Positions 3,241 to 59,594 of a stretch of 64,000 bases of DNA are shown here, piece by piece. The notes under the pieces were generated by a model. It saw only the letters and a list, made by a program, of their open reading frames with translations, made no database searches and was not told where the DNA came from. Numbering within the stretch: position 1 is the stretch's first letter; every line of letters begins with the position of its first letter. Both the position numbers and the translations under genes were made by a program. The DNA is taken from the NCBI GenBank assembly GCA_023140255.1, contig JAGLLX010000001.1, positions 27,861-91,860 on the forward strand, written 5' to 3'. This DNA comes from Minisyncoccota bacterium. GTDB lineage: Bacteria > Patescibacteriota > Minisyncoccia > Phycocordibacterales > UBA12079.

Positions 3241-3828
3241 TTAAACGAACACTACCCACACAAGTAAAGCTACAATTAAAAGAGTTATGTAATTAAAATA
3301 TTTAAAAGCATAATGAGCCATTTGTTTTCCAAATAATTTTACTAAATAACCCACAATAAAGAATCTTAAACCTCTTCCAATTAAAGAAGCTCCAAAAAAA
3401 GTTAAAATATTTATGTGAAAAAAACCTGCTGAAAGTGTAAAAACCTTAAATGGAATTGGAGTAAAAGCTGAAATGAAAATAGCCCAGAAAGCGTTCTCTT
3501 GAAATAAAGTAGAAACAACCACCATTTGAGTCTGAAGGTTATAGGTATTAATCAAAAACTCCCCTACTAAATCAAAAAAGAAAAACCCAAAAACATAACC
3601 TAAGAGACCACCTAGAACAGAAGCAATTGTAGTTAAGAAAGAATAATATATCCACTTAGATCCATTATTTATTAAAATAGCTAATAAGAAAATATCTGGT
3701 GGAATAATAAAAAAAGAGGCTTCTGTAAATGAAAAAATAGCTAACCATAATTTAGCATTTTCTCCGTGAGAGTGATTGTATGACCAATCTTTCAAAGACT
3801 GCTTAGCTTTATTTAAATATTTAATCAT
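3241..3828 (-). CDS. DedA/SNARE-associated family membrane protein
   Basis: Polytopic protein; FFIIPPDIFLLA-type DedA motif. Confidence 0.5.
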   Translation of the reverse strand: MIKYLNKAKQSLKDWSYNHSHGENAKLWLAIFSFTEASFFIIPPDIFLLAILINNGSKWIYYSFLTTIASVLGGLLGYVFGFFFFDLVGEFLINTYNLQTQMVVVSTLFQENAFWAIFISAFTPIPFKVFTLSAGFFHINILTFFGASLIGRGLRFFIVGYLVKLFGKQMAHYAFKYFNYITLLIVALLVWVVFV

Positions 3829-6742: not shown

Positions 6743-6955
6743 ATGAATTTATTAACATCAAATTTAGAAACTGCACCTATTCCTGTGTGGGCTTTATTAT
6801 TAATAATGTTATGGGTTTTACCTTGGAAAGGTTATGCTATGTGGTTAGCAGTAAAAAATAACCAAAGAAATTGGTTTATTGCATTATTAATACTAAACAC
6901 ATTAGCTATCTTAGATATTATCTATATTTTCTTTGTGAATAAAAAGAAAAAATAA
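6743..6955 (+). CDS. Small two-helix membrane protein
   Basis: 70-aa ORF with two hydrophobic segments, located between a divergent gene and tRNA-Ser. Confidence 0.3.
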   Translation: MNLLTSNLETAPIPVWALLLIMLWVLPWKGYAMWLAVKNNQRNWFIALLILNTLAILDIIYIFFVNKKKK

Positions 6956-7018
6956 AGGTAGATTTTTTGTTGAAATTTTGATAGGATAATCTCTGTAATC
7001 GACATATAAACTCTACAT

Positions 7019-7105
7019 GGAGAGGTGGCAGAGAGGTCGAATGCACCAGTCTTGAAAACTGGAGTGCCTTAACGGGTACCGAGGGTTCGAATCCCTCCCT
7101 CTCCG
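7019..7105 (+). tRNA. tRNA-Ser (anticodon TGA)
   Basis: GGAGAGGTGGCAGAG... ; anticodon loop CTTGAAA; long variable arm; acceptor GGAGAGG/CCTCTCC. Confidence 0.85.
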
Positions 7106-7181: not shown

Positions 7182-7631
7182 ATGGAAAATGAAATTTCAT
7201 GGGAAGCTTTTGAGTATGAATTTAACCCTAAATCTAATAATTGGTTTTGGGTTATTTGGATTTTAGCTCTTGGTCTTTCTGTTATGTTTTATTTGCTTGG
7301 TAATATAGTATTTGGAATACTTATATTAGTAGCAGTTTTTTCTATTTCTGTTTTTGCTAGCCGCAAACCAGATTTAATGATAATTAGACTTAACTCTAAA
7401 AAAATAATTATTAAAAACAAAGAAATTGATCTTGATGATCTAGAGTCTTTTTGGATTGAAAATCAAAAAATTTTATTTAAATCTTTAAAAAAATTAAGTC
7501 CTTATATTATAATCCCTTTGAGCTCAAGAGCTGATGTAGAAGAAATACGAGATTATTTACTAGAATATTTAGAAGAGGAAGAACTCCATGAATCAATTCT
7601 ACAAATTTTTTTAGAAAAGATTTGGTCATAA
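7182..7631 (+). CDS. Hypothetical membrane protein
   Basis: 149-aa ORF, two TM helices near the N-terminus, acidic C-terminus. Confidence 0.4.
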   Translation: MENEISWEAFEYEFNPKSNNWFWVIWILALGLSVMFYLLGNIVFGILILVAVFSISVFASRKPDLMIIRLNSKKIIIKNKEIDLDDLESFWIENQKILFKSLKKLSPYIIIPLSSRADVEEIRDYLLEYLEEEELHESILQIFLEKIWS

Positions 7632-7639
7632 AAATTTTT

Positions 7640-7711
7640 GTCCTCGTAGTTCAATGGATAGAATATAACTTTGCGGAAGTTAGGACGTAGGTTCGATTCC
7701 TACCGAGGGCA
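7640..7711 (+). tRNA. tRNA-Arg (anticodon GCG)
   Basis: GTCCTCGTAGTTCAATGGATAGAAT... ; anticodon stem TAACT/AGTTA, loop TTGCGGA gives G34C35G36; backbone nearly identical to the TCT isoacceptor. Confidence 0.7.
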
Positions 7712-7775
7712 CAAATTTAAAAAACCCCTAGTTAAATTACTACTAGGAGTTCTTCTCTTAAGAACAAGTTTTTTG

Positions 7776-7964
7776 TTATTTTTTAGCAAGAGTAATAGCA
7801 ATAGCACCTAAAAAAGAAACCTTAGCCACTTCTATCAACATCGAGGATGTCGTTGCTAACTGCTCACTAACAGACTCTAAAAAGAACAACGGTATAAACA
7901 ATATAACAATAATCGCAAAGAGTGTTCCACCAACCCAAAGCATAAAATTTCCAAAATCCTTCAT
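7776..7964 (-). CDS. Small hydrophobic protein (62 aa)
   Basis: ORF with two hydrophobic segments. Confidence 0.3.
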   Translation of the reverse strand: MKDFGNFMLWVGGTLFAIIVILFIPLFFLESVSEQLATTSSMLIEVAKVSFLGAIAITLAKK

Positions 7965-8058
7965 AACAACCTCCTTCTCCTTTATTTTTTAATTATTATT
8001 ACTTATCTAATTCATAATTTACATGAATAATAATATAATGTCAATAAAAACAAACAGC

Positions 8059-8080
8059 TCATCTGCCAGCTGGCAGATGA
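8059..8080. terminator. Palindromic hairpin downstream of rpsT
   Basis: TCATCTGCCAGCTGGCAGATGA perfect palindrome flanked by T-rich sequence on both strands. Confidence 0.5.
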
Positions 8081-8100
8081 TCTGTTATTTTTATATTATC

Positions 8101-8373
8101 TTATTTAGAAATATTTTTGATTGACCGTGAAAGAGTAGATTTTTTTCGAGCAGCTGTATTTTTCTTTAAAATACCTCTTTTTACAGCTTTATCAATTGCT
8201 TTATAAGCTTTTGATAATTCCTCATTAGCTTCTTTAGTTTTTTTAATAGATACTAATTTAACTACAGTGTTAACTGCATCTTTCATTGTTCTTTTTTTCC
8301 GCAAATTAAAAATTCTTTTTCTTTCTGAACCTCTAAGTGCTTTTTTTGCTGATTTAATTACTGGCATATGCAA
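8101..8373 (-). CDS. rpsT: 30S ribosomal protein bS20
   Basis: Basic 90-aa protein, SAKKALRGSERKR... typical of S20. Confidence 0.85.
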   Translation of the reverse strand: MHMPVIKSAKKALRGSERKRIFNLRKKRTMKDAVNTVVKLVSIKKTKEANEELSKAYKAIDKAVKRGILKKNTAARKKSTLSRSIKNISK

Positions 8374-8473
8374 GTATACTACCCCAATCTATCTTAAAAA
8401 TCAACTGTTTTAAATTTATTAATTTCTACTAAAATACTGGATACAAAATACCGAATACAGTATACTGTAATTA

Positions 8474-9046
8474 ATGATCTCACAATTAACAGGAGAAATA
8501 TCTTTTCAGGACGAAAATTATATTATTTTAAATGTATCTGGAGTAGGTTATAAATTATTTATAAGCACAGAAACTTTTAAATCTTTAAAAAATACCGTAA
8601 AAGTATTAACTTTTTGGACTCATTTAGCTGTTAGAGAAAATTCTATGGATTTATATGGTTTTTTAGAAAAATCAGAAATGAACTTTTTTGCTTTACTTAT
8701 CACTATTTCAGGAATTGGTCCTAAAACAGCTTTGGGAATTTTAAATGTAGCAAATGTAGATACTTTAATTTCAGCTATTTCCTCTGAAGACACAAGTTAT
8801 TTAACTAAAGTATCAGGAATTGGACAAAAAAATGCCCAAAAAATTATTCTAGAATTAAAAAATAAAATATCAAAAATTGAAAGTACTACTTCAAGTGATA
8901 TTCAAGGAGATATAGATGTAATTGAAGCTCTTCAAGCACTTGGTTATAATCCTCAAGAAGCAAAAAAAGCTCTCCAGCAAACTGATAAAAAAATTACAGA
9001 TGTTGGTAAAAAAATCAAAGAAGCTATTAAATTTTTAGGAAAATAA
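8474..9046 (+). CDS. ruvA: Holliday junction DNA helicase RuvA
   Basis: N-terminal OB domain, ISGIGPKTALGIL helix-hairpin-helix, C-terminal domain III. Confidence 0.85.
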   Translation: MISQLTGEISFQDENYIILNVSGVGYKLFISTETFKSLKNTVKVLTFWTHLAVRENSMDLYGFLEKSEMNFFALLITISGIGPKTALGILNVANVDTLISAISSEDTSYLTKVSGIGQKNAQKIILELKNKISKIESTTSSDIQGDIDVIEALQALGYNPQEAKKALQQTDKKITDVGKKIKEAIKFLGK

Positions 9047-9050
9047 ATTT

Positions 9051-10307
9051 ATGGATAATATTTTATTTCAAATCAAAAAAATAATTCCCACTAAATTATT
9101 TAAATTAGGACAGCCTGCCTATCATTATATACTTGCTTTAACTGGAGCTGTTATTTATCGTTTCCCTTCTCGTAAAATATCTGTGATTGGAATAACTGGA
9201 ACAAAAGGAAAGACCTCTGTGGCTGAATTTGTAAATGTGATTTTAGAAGAAGCTGGTTATAAGACAGCTTTAGCTGGAACTTTACGTTTTAAAATAGGAA
9301 AAGAATCTATTCCAAATAAATTCAAAATGACAATGCCTGGAAGATTTTTTATCCAAAATTTTATTAGAAAAGCTGTAAATAAAAAATGTGATTATGTAAT
9401 CCTAGAAATGACATCTGAAGGAACAAAACAATTTAGACATAAATTTATATCACTTAATTCTTTAATTTTTACAAATTTAGCCCCTGAACATATAGAATCA
9501 CACGGTTCTTATGAAAATTATTTAAAAGCTAAGTTAAAAATTATCCAAGCTTTAGAAAGATCTCCTAAAAAAAATAAATCTATAATTGTAAATTCAGATG
9601 ATAAAGAGGGTTTTAAATTTTTAAATATAAATATTGAAAATAAAATATCTTATTCCCTTTCTGAAATTGAACCTTTTGAATTAAAAAAAGATGGTTTAAG
9701 TTTTACTTACCAAAACACAAAAATAGAATCCCCTCTTTCAGGAGAGTTTAATATTTATAATATTTTATCTGCAATTAAATTTGCAGAAACTCAAAAAGTA
9801 GATATTAATATAATTAAAAAAGCAATTAAGAATTTTGAAATTATTAGAGGTAGAGTTGAAAAAATAAACGAAGGGCAAGATTTTGAAATAATAGTTGATT
9901 ATGCTCATACTCCAGATTCATTAGAGAAACTTTATCAAGCTTTCCCAAATTCAAATAAAATTTGTATTCTAGGAAACACAGGAGGAGGAAGAGATATTTG
10001 GAAAAGAAAAGTAATGGGATCAATTGCTGATAAATATTGTTCTAAAATTATATTAACAAACGAGGACCCTTATGATGAAGATCCTTTGAAAATACTTAAG
10101 GATGTTGCTGAAGGGGTTTCTAATATAAAATATGAAACTATTCTGGATAGGAAAGAAGCAATTAAAAAAGCAATTTCTCTTGCTCAGACAGGAGATACAA
10201 TTTTAATTTCAGGAAAAGGAACTGACCCTTATATAATGGGCCCAAATAATAGTAAAATTGAATGGGATGATGCAAGTGTTGTAAGAGAAATTCTTATTAG
10301 TGAATAA
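9051..10307 (+). CDS. Mur ligase family protein (MurE/cyanophycin-synthetase-like, short form)
   Basis: GITGTKGKTS ATP-binding motif; DYAHTPDSL C-terminal Mur-ligase motif. Confidence 0.65.
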   Translation: MDNILFQIKKIIPTKLFKLGQPAYHYILALTGAVIYRFPSRKISVIGITGTKGKTSVAEFVNVILEEAGYKTALAGTLRFKIGKESIPNKFKMTMPGRFFIQNFIRKAVNKKCDYVILEMTSEGTKQFRHKFISLNSLIFTNLAPEHIESHGSYENYLKAKLKIIQALERSPKKNKSIIVNSDDKEGFKFLNINIENKISYSLSEIEPFELKKDGLSFTYQNTKIESPLSGEFNIYNILSAIKFAETQKVDINIIKKAIKNFEIIRGRVEKINEGQDFEIIVDYAHTPDSLEKLYQAFPNSNKICILGNTGGGRDIWKRKVMGSIADKYCSKIILTNEDPYDEDPLKILKDVAEGVSNIKYETILDRKEAIKKAISLAQTGDTILISGKGTDPYIMGPNNSKIEWDDASVVREILISE

Positions 10308-33700: not shown

Positions 33701-35518
33701 TTATTTTTGTGCTTCTTCTAATTCTTTCTTTGCTTTTTTAATATTTAATATTTGTGAAGGATCAGAAGTAATAATTTGATCTTCTGTATATGAAGCAAAA
33801 ATTTGAATAGCAATATGCTTCATTCCCACAAAGAAGATGCCCTCTCCTACTTTTGATTCCAATAATAAATATTTTTCTTCATCCGTTAAATTAAATGTTT
33901 TTTGAACTAAATCAATACTTGTTGGGGATTGTTTTAAGAGTAATTGAATAGATGAGTTTGTGATAATCGGCATTCCATAAGGAGAAGATAAAAAGTCATT
34001 TACATCTTGAGTGACAGTTGATATCCCTAAATAATACTTTCGTCCTCTTTTAGCTAACCCAAATAAGAAAGAAGCTGTGTCTTCTGTTTTCATCATCCAC
34101 CAAGCTTCTTCAATTACCAATAATCTCTTTTTCAAATTCTTTCGGATAGCACTCCAAATATATTGAGTAATAATATACATTGCTACAGGTTTTAATTCAT
34201 CCTCCATATCTCGTAGAGAAAAGACAATAAATTTTCTTTCAATATCTACATTTGTTGGTTGATTAATAAATCCAGACCATGTTCCTTTTGTATATTTAGC
34301 TAGTTTTTGAAGAAGATTGTCTGTATTTTCCATTCCAGCTAAAACTAATTCAAAATCAGATAATAAAGGTGCGTCTATATTTGAAAAATCAGAATCAGGA
34401 GTAATATCTTTAAGAGCATAAGTTTCTGTAATAGCCCTGTCAATAATAGAGTCTTCCTCTGGGCTAAGCCCTCCAAACATTACCCTAAATAAACCAACTA
34501 AGTTAATGATATTAGAACGAAGAACATTTGCTTGAGACTCATCTTCTCTGGCTTGAGGTAAATCAAAAGGATTAATATGGTGTTCGGAAGTTAGAGAAAT
34601 ATTAAAATATCGTCCATCCATTGCTTCAGATAAATATTCATATTCTTTTTCTGGGTCAATAACCATTACATCAATATCAAACATTAATGAACGTAAAATT
34701 TCTAATTTAACAGCATAAGATTTTCCTGATCCTGATTTCGCAAAGGTAACTGAATTATAGTTTGGAAGTGAATATCTATCAAAAAGAATCAAACTAGAAT
34801 TATGACGGTTAATTCCATATAAAATACCTTTATCTGATGTTAAATCTGAAGAGATAAAAGGAAATATACTGGAAAGAGGGGCAGAATTTAATTTAGAAGA
34901 AACTCCTAAAAGGTTTTGGTTCAAAGGTAATGTACTTTTAAACCCTTGTTCTTGTTGAAATAATGAAGGGCGAATATAAATCATTTTTGATTCTAAAATT
35001 GAACGGATTTCATTTTCAGTTCTATCTAACTCTTCTTCTGAGTCTCCATAAATAGAAACATAAACACTAACATCAAATAATTTTTCTTGGGCTTGTTGAA
35101 GTTTATCTCTTAAACTTTCTAAATTTTGATAAGCTGAATCCAAAGCTGGGTCTCTTACCAACCCTTTATTCTCTCTCATTATAATTTGGCTTTGAACCTC
35201 AGCTACTTTTTTTTGGAATTTTCTTAAAACCTTAGATGTTTCTATAGGATGAATAAAAATAGAAACATTGAATTCTTTATCTAAATTTATAACAGGAGAA
35301 AACCAATTATCAGTTAAAAATTTCGGATAAGAAATAACAAAAAAAGTTCTAATAATTTTTTCTCCTAAATGAGTTTCTTTTGGAGTTATTTTTAAAGCAG
35401 AAGGAGCAATAATATCCTTTAGTTCTAAAACTCCTGCATCATAGATTTCTTGAGGTAAAATCGGATCTATTTGTAGTTCTTTTTCTTTTTTATTTAATAT
35501 TTTATTTAAAAAATTCAT
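33701..35518 (-). CDS. virB4: VirB4/TrbE/CagE-family type IV secretion ATPase
   Basis: Walker A FAKSGSGKS, Walker B VIDPEKEY, RGRKYYLGISTVTQD C-terminal motif. Confidence 0.8.
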   Translation of the reverse strand: MNFLNKILNKKEKELQIDPILPQEIYDAGVLELKDIIAPSALKITPKETHLGEKIIRTFFVISYPKFLTDNWFSPVINLDKEFNVSIFIHPIETSKVLRKFQKKVAEVQSQIIMRENKGLVRDPALDSAYQNLESLRDKLQQAQEKLFDVSVYVSIYGDSEEELDRTENEIRSILESKMIYIRPSLFQQEQGFKSTLPLNQNLLGVSSKLNSAPLSSIFPFISSDLTSDKGILYGINRHNSSLILFDRYSLPNYNSVTFAKSGSGKSYAVKLEILRSLMFDIDVMVIDPEKEYEYLSEAMDGRYFNISLTSEHHINPFDLPQAREDESQANVLRSNIINLVGLFRVMFGGLSPEEDSIIDRAITETYALKDITPDSDFSNIDAPLLSDFELVLAGMENTDNLLQKLAKYTKGTWSGFINQPTNVDIERKFIVFSLRDMEDELKPVAMYIITQYIWSAIRKNLKKRLLVIEEAWWMMKTEDTASFLFGLAKRGRKYYLGISTVTQDVNDFLSSPYGMPIITNSSIQLLLKQSPTSIDLVQKTFNLTDEEKYLLLESKVGEGIFFVGMKHIAIQIFASYTEDQIITSDPSQILNIKKAKKELEEAQK

Positions 35519-55133: not shown

Positions 55134-55400
55134 TTATTTTTTTAGTCCTAGAGTTTTAATTACTTTATTGTAACGAGCAGTACTCTTTTTTTGTAAATAT
55201 TTTAAATGTTTTCTTCTATCAGCTACCATTTGTAATAAACCTTTTCTTGAATGTCTGTCTTTTCTATGAGTTTTTAAATGCATTGCTAATTCATCAATCT
55301 TTTTAGATAAAATAGAAACCTGTACTTCTGGAGAACCAGTATCAGCTTTGTGTTTCTGAACCTTCTTTATAGCGTTATCTTTTTTTACTTTTGTTAACAT
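55134..55400 (-). CDS. rpsO: 30S ribosomal protein uS15
   Basis: 88 aa, ...GSPEVQVSILSKKI...HLKTHRKDRHSRKGL... Confidence 0.9.
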   Translation of the reverse strand: MLTKVKKDNAIKKVQKHKADTGSPEVQVSILSKKIDELAMHLKTHRKDRHSRKGLLQMVADRRKHLKYLQKKSTARYNKVIKTLGLKK

Positions 55401-55446
55401 GATGCGAAAATAATAGCATTAATTATTAAAATTTGCAAGAAAATAA

Positions 55447-55631
55447 GGGTAAAATAGTGTATTTATGAGATATTTGATGGAATCTGATTTAACCTCCGAG
55501 GAAGGAGTTCTGCCGTTAGAAGTAAAAAACCAAAGGTTTTTGTCAGTTTTAACGGTAGATTTTATTGTTAAATAAATAACAACAAAAGATTAAATCTAAC
55601 TCCTTATCTCATAAATACACTATTTTACCGA
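55447..55631. mobile_element. MITE-like element with perfect 25-bp terminal inverted repeats
   Basis: GGTAAAATAGTGTATTTATGAGATA ... TATCTCATAAATACACTATTTTACC; the interior carries a CCGTTAGAAG...TTTTAACGG hairpin of the CCGTTAGAG family. Confidence 0.55.
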
Positions 55632-55723
55632 TATAATTCTATGAATTCACTAATTTTTTTAAATTAACGAATTCAATAGAATGGGTAAAGTGTTTGTTCT
55701 AAACACCTTACCCAGATGAGAAG

Positions 55724-56101
55724 TTACTCTTTAGGATTAAGAGCATCCTTCACTGCTCGGGCAAGGCCGGTATTGTATTGGCCTTTGTTTACTCGAGCAG
55801 CACCTTCAAAGGTTTTCCCGTTAATGGTTACGATTGTAACATCAACTTGGCGACCTCTGAAAGCTGAATCATTTTTCCCGAATCTGTCACGGAAGTTAAC
55901 TGCGACATTTTCGAAACCTTTTTCTTTAAGAAGCCCAAAAATCTGGAGCTTCTCAATTTTCGGAGGATCAAATGATCTGTAGTCCCATGAGAATTCAACA
56001 TTCTCTAGGCAGATACAGCTTTCTTCTGCATTTGCAGGTATAGTTGAAATAACAACTAACATTACCAAAACTACCAAAAAACTACCGATTAATTTCTTCA
56101 T
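55724..56101 (-). CDS. Small secreted protein (island gene A)
   Basis: Signal peptide MKKLIGSFLVVLVMLVVISTIPANA; GGAG SD; GC-elevated. Confidence 0.45.
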   Translation of the reverse strand: MKKLIGSFLVVLVMLVVISTIPANAEESCICLENVEFSWDYRSFDPPKIEKLQIFGLLKEKGFENVAVNFRDRFGKNDSAFRGRQVDVTIVTINGKTFEGAARVNKGQYNTGLARAVKDALNPKE

Positions 56102-56217
56102 CTTCTTTCTCCTTTCTCGGAATTTCCGAGATCTAGTTTTGTTATTATAACGTTAAGTTGATAGATTACTACCGCAAAACAAATAACGATAACGATAGTT
56201 AAGTATGCGATTTGCAT
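56098..56217 (-). CDS. Unannotated 39-aa single-TM peptide (island), translationally coupled to gene A
   Basis: Hand translation MQIAYLTIVIVICFAVVIYQLNVIITKLDLGNSEKGERR; SD AAAGGAGG; stop overlaps ATG of gene A (ATGA). Confidence 0.35.
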   Translation of the reverse strand: MQIAYLTIVIVICFAVVIYQLNVIITKLDLGNSEKGERR

Positions 56218-56252
56218 GATACCTTCCTCCTTTCTCGGAATCTCCGAGATAT

Positions 56253-56423
56253 GTAAACTTTATTTAAAGAACATCTACTATGAAACTTCAAACACTTTGT
56301 TTAAAATTTCAATAATAGGCTGGAGTGAGTATTTTTCAATAAACACTCCAGCGAACTTTGAACACTAAGTTTTTTGTCTAGGACTGGGGAACTTGGAAAC
56401 CTTTTTATTATTTAAGAACAACT
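56253..56423. repeat. Promoter/leader repeat module, copy 1
   Basis: Contains hairpin CTGGAGTG...CACTCCAG; on the minus strand TTGAAA-N16-TATTAT; palindrome GAAACTTCAAACACTTTGTTTAAAATTTC. About 99% identical to copy 3. Confidence 0.6.
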
Positions 56424-56810
56424 TCAGTCATAATCATGTCTGGTAGTGAAGAGCCTTGTTGCCTCAGTTTTGTTTTTTACAGAAATTGGTATATTACCAT
56501 CAATATACCACTGAGAGTGGTTAAATCTCTCAATAAATTCTTTCGTGCCTTTTTGCGGAGCTTCACAAGAATTTGTACACTTCTTGGAACAACCTTCGCA
56601 CATTTTTGTTGCTTCAAGCTGGCTTTTGATGTAGTCGAGGACTTTCTCGGCTTTTTCGGTGAGGTTGTCTTGAATAGTAGATGGATAATATATACATATC
56701 TCTATCCCATTCCCCCAGTTTAAATCTATTTGATATACACCATCTACCGACTGAATCAATGTATTGCTACATTGATTTGGAATTGGTATTTCAAATCCTC
56801 TTGTACTCAT
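56424..56810 (-). CDS. Small cysteine-rich protein (island gene B)
   Basis: 128 aa, CEGCSKKCTNSC cluster; SD GGAGAGGAG preceded by hairpin TCCGACAATGTCGGA. Confidence 0.45.
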   Translation of the reverse strand: MSTRGFEIPIPNQCSNTLIQSVDGVYQIDLNWGNGIEICIYYPSTIQDNLTEKAEKVLDYIKSQLEATKMCEGCSKKCTNSCEAPQKGTKEFIERFNHSQWYIDGNIPISVKNKTEATRLFTTRHDYD

Positions 56811-56845
56811 CTCTTTCTCCTCTCCGACATTGTCGGAATTTAAGT

Positions 56846-57022
56846 TATTTTCCCAAAAAACTTATATATTCAAATTTATTTAAAGAACTACTATGAAACT
56901 TCAAACACTTTGTTTAAAGTTTCAATAATAGGGGTGAGATACTTGCAAACTAAACAAGTCTCACCCTTTTGAACATTAAAGCTTTTTGATACCCAGAAGC
57001 TTTGGAGAACTTGGAAACCTTT
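56846..57022. repeat. Promoter/leader repeat module, copy 2 (diverged)
   Basis: Same block order as copy 1; hairpin stem replaced by GGGTGAGA...TCTCACCC (compensatory). Confidence 0.6.
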
Positions 57023-57274
57023 TTAAAGGTTAAGACTTTCTGTAAAATTGGAGTAATCACTCCAATCACAAGAACAACAGGACCGTTTTATTTGATACCT
57101 TCGGACCTGCACCCTTTTGTAAGGATAATTTGCCACGTAATTTCTTACGTGAACAATTTCCTTTGTTAATAGTATTTGTTCCTTTCTGACCCACCCCTCA
57201 CATTCAGGGCAGATATTTTTTGAAAGAGCCTCTTCTCTTAGGGCTTTTTCCAGTCTTTCCTTTGTATCATTCAT
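57023..57274 (-). CDS. Small zinc-ribbon-like protein (island gene C)
   Basis: 83 aa; CPEC ... CCSC; start overlaps end of gene D. Confidence 0.45.
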   Translation of the reverse strand: MNDTKERLEKALREEALSKNICPECEGWVRKEQILLTKEIVHVRNYVANYPYKRVQVRRYQIKRSCCSCDWSDYSNFTESLNL

Positions 57275-57452
57275 CTTCTCCTCCTTGTTTTATATATAAC
57301 TTCATTGTCAAAATATATGTTTGCCAGATTGGACAGCAGTTTTTATCGCAATAGACTTGAGTTGAAGCAGCTGCTCCCCTGTTTCCAGTTACAGTGAGAC
57401 CACATCCATCTCCTTTTTGAAATTGACACCTTAACTCGTTATTATTACTCAT
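57267..57452 (-). CDS. Small cysteine-rich peptide (island gene D, 61 aa from MSNNN)
   Basis: Start re-set to the Met preceded by SD GAAAGGAGACGGGG; 5 Cys; the C-terminus encodes the SD for gene C. Confidence 0.4.
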   Translation of the reverse strand: MSNNNELRCQFQKGDGCGLTVTGNRGAAASTQVYCDKNCCPIWQTYILTMKLYIKQGGEDE

Positions 57453-57492
57453 TCCCCGTCTCCTTTCTCGACATCGTCGAGATCTAGTATAT

Positions 57493-57647
57493 AAAACTTT
57501 ATTTAAAGAACATCTACTATGAAACTTCAAACACTTTGTTTAAAATTTCAATAATAGGCTGGAGTGAGTATTTTTCAATAAACACTCCAGCGAACTTTGA
57601 ACACCAAGTTTTTATACTAAGGCAGAAAACTTGGAAACCTTTCTATC
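57493..57647. repeat. Promoter/leader repeat module, copy 3
   Basis: About 125 bp essentially identical to copy 1. Confidence 0.6.
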
Positions 57648-58118
57648 TTATTTCAGACAGCGGATAGACAGGCCTAATTGTTTTCCACTTTTGCCTTGGG
57701 TACCCTTACAATTCAAATCAGTAATATCTCTCCTGTTAGCCCAAGCAAGATCTTCATTTATAGAAGAAGATGACCAGAAAAAAGCAGTATAATAAAAATT
57801 GAGAAGGTTGACGTAACCGTAAGAGAAACGTACTCCTGCAAAAAATAAGTTGGGGATACTTTCCCTACCCTTTTCTCCAAGGATAGACCATTCTTCAACA
57901 GTCGGTATCTGCTTTCCAGCTTTTTTGGTTTCTCGTATTGCAGCAGAAAAGGTAAATAATTGTTGGCCTGCAGTATTATATACCCCAGTACCACCAACAT
58001 ACTCCCAAATATCCTTTTCAGGATTTTGGAGATAAACAACTCCGTTATTGTCGGTAAATTGTTCCCAACCACTAGAGTCAACCTTGAAATTTTCGTTTTC
58101 CAGCTGAAGATTACTCAT
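57648..58118 (-). CDS. FISUMP-domain protein (Fibrobacter succinogenes major paralogous domain)
   Basis: ...IPTVEEWSIL..., AGVRFSYGYVNLLNFYYTAFFWSSSS, GLSIRCLK C-terminus; SD GGGGAAGGAG preceded by hairpin CCCGATGATTTCGGG. Confidence 0.55.
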   Translation of the reverse strand: MSNLQLENENFKVDSSGWEQFTDNNGVVYLQNPEKDIWEYVGGTGVYNTAGQQLFTFSAAIRETKKAGKQIPTVEEWSILGEKGRESIPNLFFAGVRFSYGYVNLLNFYYTAFFWSSSSINEDLAWANRRDITDLNCKGTQGKSGKQLGLSIRCLK

Positions 58119-58279
58119 TTCCCTTCTCCTTCCCCGAAATCATCGGGTTAGTTTAAAATTGACAACAAAAAGAAAATTATTCCCAAAAAACTTGATATTT
58201 AATTGTAAAGAACATCTTTTTCTCTTTATTAAGAGAGTGGAAAATACGAAACTTCATATTTTTTTCTCTCTAAACAAAA

Positions 58280-58323
58280 AATTGGTCGTTTAATTCTTTC
58301 GGAAAAGAATTAAACGACCAATT
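58280..58323. terminator. 20-bp-stem hairpin bounding the island
   Basis: AATTGGTCGTTTAATTCTTT-CGGA-AAAGAATTAAACGACCAATT with T-run on the minus-strand side. Confidence 0.5.
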
Positions 58324-58354
58324 TCTGATCTTTTAAACTCCTTCCTCAAAAAGC

Positions 58355-58472
58355 TTGTCCTGTTAGAGGTAAGAAACTGAAAATTTCTGTAAGCTCTAAT
58401 AGGATTTTTTATTTATCCCGTTAGAAGTAAAAAATCGTAGATTTTCGTCAGTTCTAATGGGATTTAGTTTTT
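58355..58472. repeat. Two tandem hairpin units of the CCGTTAGAG family
   Basis: CCTGTTAGAGG...CTCTAATAGGA and CCCGTTAGAAG...TTCTAATGGGA; the second is about 80% identical to the MITE interior at 55525..55575. Confidence 0.45.
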
Positions 58473-58700
58473 AAAATGTTTCCGTCTCTTTCTTAACTGT
58501 ATTTATAGTATCATAACTAATATAATTTGTCAAGGGATTTAGTTTGCTTAAGTTATTTTTAATTTTTTAATCCCCTTTCCTTAATTACGAATACTATATC
58601 ATATTGTAAATAACTTGTCAAGCTTTGTTTAAAATAATTTAGAAATCCAACTTTCGTTATGTCGCACAATATTTTTTATGATTATGATATAATTTAAGGA

Positions 58701-59594
58701 ATGAAAGGTTTAAAACAATTAAAAAATGAGTTTCTGGAATATCTAGAGATTGAAAAAGGGCGAAGTCTTAAAACTGTTGAGAATTATGATCGCTACTTAA
58801 GTCGTTTTTTGGGTTATCTAGAATCAGACTTCCCTTCTGCTATTACTGATGAAAAAATGAGAAAGTATCGTTTATGGTTAAATCGTCAACCAACTGGAAA
58901 TAATTCAGAAACATTAAAAAAGAGAACTCAGAATTATTATTTAATCGCTTTACGAGGTTTTTTAAAATATTTAGTCAAAAGAGAAATAAAATCTTTTGCT
59001 CCAGAAAAAATAGAACTAGCTAAAGTCGGAGAAAGGTCTTTAGATTTAATTTCGGCAGAAGAATTAAAAAGATTATTAAATATATCAAAAGGAAAAGATT
59101 TAAAAGATTTAAGAGACAAAGCTATTTTAGAATTACTCTATTCTACAGGATTAAGAGTTTCAGAATTATGTGCTTTAAATTCTGATATTGATTTAAGAAA
59201 AGATGAAATGTCAGTTCGCGGAAAAGGAGATAAGGTACGAGTGGTTTTCTTTTCTCATTCAGCCAAAAAAGCAATTAAAGAATATCTTGATGCAAGAAAA
59301 GATATGGACGAAGCTTTGTTTACTTCATTGAGTAAAGATAAAGCTAGTCGTTTAACTACAAGGTCTGTGGAGAGATTAGTTAAACAATTAGCCATTAAAG
59401 CTGGGATTACAAAGAAGGTTACTCCCCATATTATTAGGCATTCCTTCGCTACTGACTTGTTAGAGAATGGGGCTGATTTAAGATCAGTGCAAATGATGTT
59501 GGGTCATTCTGATATCTCTACTACTCAAATTTATACCCATATGACAGATAAACATTTAAAAGATATACATAAAAAATTTCATAATAAGAAATAA
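58701..59594 (+). CDS. xerC: Tyrosine recombinase XerC/XerD family
   Basis: N-terminal SAM-like domain; catalytic R..HxxR..Y (HIIRHSFAT ... TQIYTH). Confidence 0.85.
   Translation: MKGLKQLKNEFLEYLEIEKGRSLKTVENYDRYLSRFLGYLESDFPSAITDEKMRKYRLWLNRQPTGNNSETLKKRTQNYYLIALRGFLKYLVKREIKSFAPEKIELAKVGERSLDLISAEELKRLLNISKGKDLKDLRDKAILELLYSTGLRVSELCALNSDIDLRKDEMSVRGKGDKVRVVFFSHSAKKAIKEYLDARKDMDEALFTSLSKDKASRLTTRSVERLVKQLAIKAGITKKVTPHIIRHSFATDLLENGADLRSVQMMLGHSDISTTQIYTHMTDKHLKDIHKKFHNKK

Follow-up and report, generated by a model that had tools for sequence, protein, structure and literature searches.

GC-rich hairpins abutting Shine-Dalgarno sequences in a Patescibacteria gene-cassette array as candidate RNA 5' caps

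The window analyzed here is a stretch of 64,000 nucleotides (nt; 28% GC) from an uncultured Patescibacteria ("Candidatus Pacebacteria") genome. It carries an island of six small genes, all on the minus strand, flanked by rpsO (55400-55134) and by a divergent xerC-like gene (58701-59594); the GC content of the island is about 35-38% as against about 27% in the flanks. At five of the six gene starts, a short GC-rich hairpin abuts the Shine-Dalgarno (SD) sequence, and these hairpins are the subject of this report. The island genes are as follows.

58118-57648, minus strand: FISUMP-like gene
57452-57267, minus strand: gene D, 61 amino acids (aa), Cys-rich
57274-57023, minus strand: gene C, 83 aa, with CxxC...CCxC, Cys pairs typical of a zinc ribbon
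56810-56424, minus strand: gene B, no homolog found (zero among 5.8 billion proteins)
56217-56098, minus strand: hydrophobic open reading frame (ORF) of 39 aa
56101-55724, minus strand: gene A, signal-peptide-like N-terminus, its start overlapping the upstream stop (ATGA)

At the five sites the order is hairpin, GGAG-type SD and ATG, as a sequence-only reading of the same DNA had described, and the end of the stem lies 0-2 nt from the SD (AAGGAG, GAGGAG or GAAGGAG).

58147-58133, minus strand: hairpin of the FISUMP-like gene, CCCGATGATTTCGGG (CCCGA-UGAUU-UCGGG), 0 nt to the SD GAAGGAG at 58132-58126; ATG at 58118
57482-57466, minus strand: hairpin of gene D, TCTCGACGATGTCGAGA (UCUCGAC-GAU-GUCGAGA), 0 nt to the SD AAGGAG at 57465-57460; ATG at 57452
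56837-56823, minus strand: hairpin of gene B, TCCGACAATGTCGGA (UCCGAC-AAU-GUCGGA), SD GAGGAG at 56822-56817; ATG at 56810
56249-56233, minus strand: hairpin of the 39-aa ORF, TCTCGGAGATTCCGAGA (UCUCGGA-GAU-UCCGAGA), SD AAGGAGG at 56232-56226; ATG at 56217
56131-56115, minus strand: hairpin of gene A, TCTCGGAAATTCCGAGA (UCUCGGA-AAU-UCCGAGA), SD AAGGAG at 56114-56109; ATG at 56101

The sequence-only reading had put a hairpin before every SD of the island. This holds for 5/6 starts, all at the minus-strand places it gave, but not for gene C, whose strong SD (AAGGAGGAG) lacks one; this gene and gene D overlap by 8 nt. All five stems are perfect, with 5-7 bp including 4 G/C pairs each, and the stem base stands 12-15 nt from the ATG. 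The hairpin of gene B has an optional U.G extension that reaches into the SD, while that of gene A is embedded in the 39-aa ORF at its 3' end and has no copy of the junction repeat (described below) ahead of it. When both strands of the window were scanned for perfect stems that comprised 5 bp or more, 3 or more of them G/C, and were followed by an SD and a start codon, the matches were these five sites and one palindrome with a 1-nt loop at 34471, which is not the start of a called gene. Among ORFs of at least 50 aa from crude gene calls, the hairpin precedes 4/6 in the island and 0/73 elsewhere (Fisher p = 1e-5); the 4/6 corresponds to four of five genes, the sixth ORF being spurious-looking, and the 39-aa ORF, below the size limit, adds the fifth hairpin. 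All island genes also have a strong AAGGAG-type SD, and an SD-like motif was seen in only 27/73 of the non-island ORFs by a crude test.

RNA folding of the 5' untranslated regions (UTRs), one of the checks that the sequence-only reading had put forward, gave the GC hairpins a pairing probability of at least 0.97 in all contexts folded. Its claim that the stems differ while compensatory changes keep the pairing was also borne out: With the stems aligned on their centers, 94.3% of cells are paired, and both sides have changed in 4/7 pairs (7 cells). There are four distinct stems among the five, with 2/7 pairs invariant, and the compensated changes include GGA/UCC versus GAC/GUC as well as a one-base co-deletion. 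The covariation score was matched by 0/500 shuffles, and sliding the partner by 1-3 columns left at most 1 pair (2 cells) changed on both sides. These statistics come from only five paralogous copies and are weak on their own; two other metagenome copies of this species' island, 100% and 99.9% identical, add no variation. The loop centers all contain RAU (AAU, GAU, GAU, AAU, UGAUU), and a CG step in the stem is invariant, giving a CG-N7-CG core. The sites of gene A, the 39-aa ORF and gene D have (A)TCTCG-N7-CGAGAAAGGAG in common with mosaic flanks, in that ACTAGA is found in A and D and the inner stem is the same in A and the 39-aa ORF.

The hairpins belong to a larger arrangement that the sequence-only reading had missed, made up of a cassette array, a structured junction repeat and, in relatives, hammerhead ribozymes. 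A junction repeat of about 120 nt lies between genes, and two of its copies are 99% identical. In the mRNA sense, it runs from AAAGGUUUCCAAGUU through a GC hairpin (hairpin 1), an AU hairpin (ZX) and motif Y (GUUCUUUAAA) into a variable stretch, after which come the GC hairpin, the SD and the ATG. Its parts are listed below.

57558..57591, minus strand: hairpin 1, CUGGAGUG...CACUCCAG, directly 3' of the preceding gene
56319-56352, minus strand: copy of hairpin 1 with the same sequence
56932-56966, minus strand: copy of hairpin 1, GGGUGAGA...UCUCACCC, of other sequence in the same place
55682-55714, minus strand: hairpin resembling hairpin 1, after gene A
57514..57558, minus strand: ZX hairpin, CUAUUAU(U)GAAAUUUUAAAC-AAAGU-GUUUGAAGUUUCAUAGUAG, 19 bp with one bulged U
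56888-56932 and 56275-56319, minus strand: copies of the ZX hairpin
57503..57511, minus strand: motif Y, GUUCUUUAA, with copies at 56880-56888 and 56264-56272 and GUUCUUUAC at 58205-58213

The junction has, according to RNAalifold, an RNA-type structure: For eight copies from five sources, the program predicts a hairpin of 19 bp, interrupted by one bulge, in which 4 pairs covary, the exchanges being GC<->AU, AU<->GC and UG<->CG/UA. Three of the ZX pairs are G.U in the mRNA sense, for which the antisense equivalents would be A.C. With 19 predicted pairs and one bulge, the ZX hairpin fits the length of about 20 bp of double-stranded RNA expected of an RNase III site. Motif Y follows it by 0-3 nt in the window and by 0-10 nt across related arrays, is complementary to the AAAGGA of the SD, and is separated from the GC hairpin by a variable distance of about 14 to 60 nt. 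As an observation in its own right, 5' UTRs of Patescibacteria contain (A)GUUCUUUAA repeatedly, in many cases immediately ahead of the SD; the motif follows hammerhead ribozymes in locus L047, a leader with a terminator in L042 and a promoter in L161. Rfam has no family for the GC hairpins or the junction, and searches with exact junction 25-mers and 21-mers in species-representative genomes and viral contigs found nothing. A search with the 17-mer TTGAAGTTTCATAGTAG gave true relatives only in L107, L117, L123, L125 and L139, among about 70 chance matches. Two DNA-level identities of the junction were tried and rejected. A dif-like 11-6/7-11 Xer site was dropped, as the same bases make up the 19-bp RNA hairpin with its sense-only G.U pairs and the stem does not reach the 28 bp of an Xer site; an attC site was rejected on the core sites and the recombinase type.

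In related arrays, a ribozyme can stand where the AU hairpin stands here. L047 (Taylorbacteria) has type III hammerheads directly 5' of motif Y, with five matches to Rfam RF00008 at E values of 2e-8 to 0.015, the match at 0.015 being just under the gathering score. They are arranged in tandem at 7339-9338 (minus strand), each followed by motif Y and a small gene, with one AUGAUGA core variant, about 3 kb from xerC on the side opposite rpsO. L125 has one hammerhead (RF00008, E = 9e-5) followed by GAACAUACAAAG instead of motif Y; a Y-like GUUCUAAAGGAGG comes about 210 nt after it, at the SD of the next gene. By inspection, the hammerheads of both loci have complete cores and three stems. Judged by its position in the sequence, the 19-bp AU hairpin of the window holds the place taken by the hammerhead in L047. 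Within the window region 55300-58750, there was no Rfam ribozyme match at E <= 5, and a scan for the CUGANGA and GAAA core motifs around the hairpins found no trace of them. The 6-bp stem of the gene B hairpin is identical to stem I of the L047 hammerhead (UCCGAC-CCA-GUCGGA); lacking the catalytic core, this identity may be read as resemblance or possible descent only. In L125, one hairpin, CCGCCCAAGGCGG, occurs in three settings: It abuts an SD, forms stem I of a hammerhead, and is part of a degenerate site that resembles a hammerhead. A gapped hammerhead-plus-Y pattern was also tried on viral contigs and abandoned as too loose, with 120+ matches and none genuine; the sole match to pass the filter was a spurious-looking GC-rich sequence.

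Comparison with other loci places the island in a recurrent setting. The recombinase is the conserved Xer of the phylum, 53-86% identical in 80 Patescibacteria loci, and scores as Xer-type, reaching 133.8 bits against a cutoff of 265 for the integron-integrase model TIGR02249. The NYN-rpsO/xerC arrangement is conserved in about 55 of the 80 loci, usually with a gap of 70-170 bp; the gap is 3.3 kb in the window, 4.5 kb in L004, 4.1 kb in L042 and 1-2.6 kb in about ten others. Since these enlarged gaps contain unrelated accessory genes, we take the rpsO-xerC gap to be a recurrent insertion hotspot beside the Xer gene. L004, whose xerC is 85% identical, has the same locus, leader, trailer and junction repeat, with entirely different genes and "empty" repeat units. 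Its genes include a toxin-antitoxin-like pair, which we take to be a predicted HicAB, and otherwise encode hypothetical proteins. The junction family also occurs in the metagenome contigs L107, L123, L125 and L139, with cassettes that include a Csx3-like protein and a DEAH helicase. In L107 and L125, hairpins unrelated in sequence to those of the window abut the SD at 7/11 gene starts checked, with the stem end 0-3 nt before the SD and the base 10-15 nt from the ATG, and several of them have sense-only G.U pairs. None of the island proteins has a homolog in the related junction-family arrays. Homologs of the FISUMP protein elsewhere in Patescibacteria are 42-51% identical and have strong SDs without the hairpin, and three of them (those in L161 and L162 and the second copy in L160) have a readable TTGACA-type promoter upstream. 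The sequence-only reading had named the absence of hairpins from orthologous loci as telling against selection on structure, and for the FISUMP-like gene, the only one with homologs, such an absence is formally what we find. These homologs lie outside the arrays, which shows that the hairpin goes with the cassette array and not with the gene family.

Taking these results together, the explanation that we prefer, with about an even chance of being correct, is that the five palindromes are RNA hairpins in 5' UTRs and that, at each independently translated cistron, they mark the mature 5' end and protect it. The sequence-only reading had allowed either RNA structure or a palindromic operator for a dimeric regulator; the former has gained support, with stems that vary while the pairing and the SD/ATG position are kept, and the latter has become weak. 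RNA is favored because the position of the hairpins is fixed relative to the SD and the ATG and not to any promoter-like element, because the gene A hairpin lies inside an ORF with no junction ahead of it, which fits a per-cistron RNA element over an operator, and because gene C, the sole start without a hairpin, is the translationally coupled one. It is also favored by the unrelated hairpins that occupy the same place in L107 and L125, several of which need sense-only G.U pairs. An operator bound by a dimeric transcription regulator of the island genes could account for the perfect dyad symmetry of 15-17 bp, the invariant CG-N7-CG core and the location between junction and gene start. Yet the half-sites differ (TCTCGGA, TCTCGAC, TCCGAC, CCCGA) in all but the CG, the distance from motif Y varies, and one site, 118 nt beyond its neighbor, falls within an ORF and has no junction repeat or conserved promoter. 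The six island proteins matched no DNA-binding family in Pfam, NCBIfam or PHROGs, and no helix-turn-helix-type regulator was found among them. We therefore regard the DNA operator as very improbable.

Three further explanations were considered. The hairpins could be translational operators, bound by an RNA-binding protein of the island (such as the zinc-ribbon gene C) or of the host that co-regulates the cassette cistrons in the manner of phage coat proteins or RegA-type repressors. RAU in all five loops, the invariant CG step, a place beside the SD that is ideal for occluding 30S binding and the Cys pairs of gene C would suit this idea, but the common loop and CG may reflect the shared ancestry of paralogous copies, and the hairpins of L107 and L125 differ in both stem and loop. 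Gene C, which the sequence-only reading had proposed as a binder, matches no family and has no homolog in the related arrays that show the same hairpin arrangement, so nothing points to such a role, and we consider a translational operator rather unlikely. Also unlikely, in our judgment, is that the hairpins have no present function and are copies of a 5'-UTR module, perhaps left over from hammerhead stem I after the catalytic core was lost, that recombination spread among the cassettes, with the palindromes kept perfect by template-switch repair. The shared motif and mosaic flanks of the A, 39-aa ORF and D sites would be expected of such a module, as would the stem that gene B shares with the L047 hammerhead, the three settings of CCGCCCAAGGCGG in L125 and the L004 array, which does without such hairpins. 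Against it stand four distinct stems that are fully paired, down to a compensated one-base co-deletion, a distance of 12-15 nt to the ATG kept despite differing flanks, the independent recurrence in L107 and L125, and the lack of any hammerhead core trace around the window hairpins. Finally, a hairpin-specific endoribonuclease (Cas6/Csy4-like or other) might cut at the hairpin base so that the mRNA starts at the SD. Stems of 5-7 bp rich in GC, loops of 3-5 nt and a distance of 0-2 nt to the SD resemble the Csy4-type sites used for insulating ribosome-binding sites (RBSs), and the array context suggests processing; however, there is no Cas6-like gene in or next to the island, the stems differ while such enzymes are sequence-selective, and an mRNA starting at the SD would be unprotected. 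This last explanation seems to us scarcely probable.

If the hairpins are indeed 5' caps, we propose the following scheme. A long transcript from promoters at the xerC end would be cut at the junctions, by the hammerhead that directly precedes a GUUCUUU-type motif in L047 and at one L125 junction, and at the 19-bp AU hairpin here, and the AU-rich 5' leader of each product would then be trimmed or left exposed. The GC hairpin, 12-15 nt before the AUG, would block 5'-end-dependent decay; it and the initiating ribosome would abut, with no single-stranded gap between them. Hairpin 1 would guard the 3' end of the upstream mRNA and the SD-side GC hairpin the 5' end of the downstream mRNA, so that, for each independently translated cistron, the 5' end would be both defined and protected and the SD would escape pairing with upstream sequence. 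Long transcripts matured at junctions are favored because the promoter matches of the array leader (listed below) are near-consensus, while inside the array only two junction copies have a promoter-like match (TTGAAA-16-TATTAT, 10/12). In silico, upstream pyrimidine-rich segments, motif Y included, partly mask the SD in the full leader, and SD accessibility rises from 0.32-0.57 to 0.42-0.99 when the leader is trimmed to the hairpin. The hairpins are stable stem-loops with the SD outside the stem and unpaired, as expected of a stabilizer. Several observations weigh against this explanation. In L004, the most closely related array, GC hairpins do not abut the SD at any of its three or four gene starts, which shows that such arrays can do without them. 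Deleting, shuffling or complementing the hairpin in silico, as a test of insulation, changed SD accessibility inconsistently. The two junctions with TTGAAA-16-TATTAT may allow some cassettes to be transcribed alone. The covariation, moreover, rests on five paralogous copies, and template-switch repair can also keep palindromes perfect.

Known systems share parts of this design. The 5' stem-loop mRNA stabilizers of the B. subtilis aprE and ermC leaders and the E. coli ompA 5' hairpin are located at the very 5' end of a single-gene primary transcript. The window hairpins resemble them as stable stem-loops upstream of a strong RBS that they do not occlude, and the expected effect would be the same protection from 5'-end-dependent decay together with the bound ribosome. 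Unlike them, the window hairpins, known from sequence alone, abut the SD and are repeated at independent cistrons, one of them inside an upstream ORF. In phages T7 and SP82, long hairpins between cistrons are RNase III sites whose cleavage leaves protective hairpins on the products; a likeness to these, as a putative site, applies only to the 19-bp junction hairpin and not to the 5-7 bp GC hairpins. Synthetic insulators of the RiboJ type consist of a ribozyme and then a hairpin placed before the RBS. Removal of upstream RNA combined with a hairpin before the RBS is the same logic of context-independent translation, which would suit cassettes that move between contexts; the window elements differ in being natural and in that the ribozyme part is absent. 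In common with integron arrays and with the DUF1874 motif, which occurs in consecutive intergenic regions (PMC5737381), the island has cassettes that share one orientation, leading away from a divergent tyrosine recombinase gene, and a structured junction that repeats between them; as in integrons, related genomes carry different cassettes at this locus (window versus L004). Unlike in integrons, the recombinase is Xer and not IntI, and RYYYAAC / GTTRRRY attC cores are absent from the junctions, as read directly. Clustered hammerheads flank single genes near integrase or prophage genes, and Perreault et al. (2011, PMC3088659) proposed, with in vitro support, that they divide long transcripts into mRNAs of single genes; their biological role is still called open (PMC6765202). 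The island likewise has small accessory genes in the same orientation with structured RNA between them and a tyrosine recombinase gene adjoining, but the window junction is the 19-bp AU hairpin and no hammerhead, and the GC hairpins stand alone before the SD.

Hairpin stabilizers and ribozyme-punctuated gene arrays are therefore known kinds. In the literature, we found no description of SD-abutting cassette hairpins, of a non-hammerhead junction or of the rpsO-xerC hotspot; what appears to be new is the SD-abutting hairpin at each independent cistron of a cassette array, the conserved non-hammerhead junction where related arrays have a hammerhead, and the rpsO-xerC gap as a Patescibacteria insertion hotspot. 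More tentatively, we suggest as a possible but doubtful extension that the island is a Patescibacteria gene-cassette platform at this hotspot, in which cassettes without strong promoters share a leader and are matured singly by interchangeable RNA modules, either a hammerhead or the junction of hairpin 1, 19-bp hairpin and GUUCUUUAAA. On this view, the junction would act as a new kind of processing signal, or even as a new self-cleaving motif, and the GC hairpin as a built-in 5' cap making a cassette expressible wherever it has landed. If the 5'-cap model is right, a processing site and a hairpin cap by the RBS would be a natural modular solution to the context-independent expression of horizontally acquired genes, a design that synthetic biologists invented independently. 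The bacterial hammerhead clusters, long a puzzle, would likewise gain a testable function, the window junction and the hammerhead being directly comparable. The rpsO-xerC gap, for its part, is marked as a recurrent site of accessory-gene insertion in Patescibacteria, a group with reduced genomes in which little is known of how genes are exchanged.

The array is bounded by a leader at the xerC end and a trailer beside rpsO, with the following features.

58275..58631, minus strand: array leader
58621-58593 and 58533-58505, minus strand: near-consensus promoter matches in the leader
58460-58413 and 58402-58355, minus strand: long imperfect 48-nt hairpins in the leader, with a third copy at 55508-55555 in the trailer
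58349-58336, minus strand: SD-like polypurine run without a start codon, UUGAGGAAGGAGUU
58324-58279, minus strand: perfect 21-bp AU hairpin in the leader, then a U run
55443..55634, no strand assigned: array trailer, with a 30-nt inverted repeat (55443-55472 / 55605-55634), 93% complementary
55496-55509, minus-strand RNA: AACUCCUUCCUCGG in the trailer, complementary to the polypurine run of the leader

L003 and L004 have the leader in conserved form, and it may be a small RNA or a processed leader. An exact 12-nt complement of its run UUGAGGAAGGAGUU, namely AACUCCUUCCUC, lies in the minus-strand RNA at the opposite end of the array, and the same pair is found in L004; the two could pair as the 5' and 3' ends, or the run could act as a ribosome-binding stabilizer. 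The inverted repeat of the trailer encloses 132 nt by the rpsO promoter and is likewise present in L004. As to other transcription signals, a -35 of TTGAAG/TTTAAA with a -10 of TTTAAA/CATAGT was rejected, its spacing of 14-24 nt varying between copies and arrays. The GC hairpins do not read as intrinsic terminators on the gene strand, where AAGGAG follows and no U run; three of them were flagged as terminators only on the opposite strand, where no gene converges.

A BLAST search of phages gave no match. The hairpin-SD pattern in viral contigs gave mostly chance matches in coding sequence, besides one phage-like sequence, recovered in two contigs (L288 986-1008 and L293 12453-12475), with the same design, TCTCGCAAATAGCGAGA-AAGGAG-ACAC-ATG. 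In L042, a conserved leader of about 200 nt occurs in two copies on the minus strand (8800-9020 and 6830-7080), and in each copy a promoter and a canonical terminator (GCCCCUCGAGGGGUUUUUU) precede motif Y, after which comes a gene; the leader looks like an attenuator or riboswitch-like element. A cassette 5' UTR of L107 contains a tRNA-like element (3424-3485) with an 8-bp acceptor-type stem, a GGTTCGACTCC T-arm and a 3' ATCA, which ARAGORN did not call as a tRNA and which could be a processing signal for RNase P/Z. Just upstream of xerC in the window, the 15-mer ATGTCGCACAATATT (58658-58672) is conserved in most related loci in either orientation and could be an Xer (dif-like) arm or an xerC operator.

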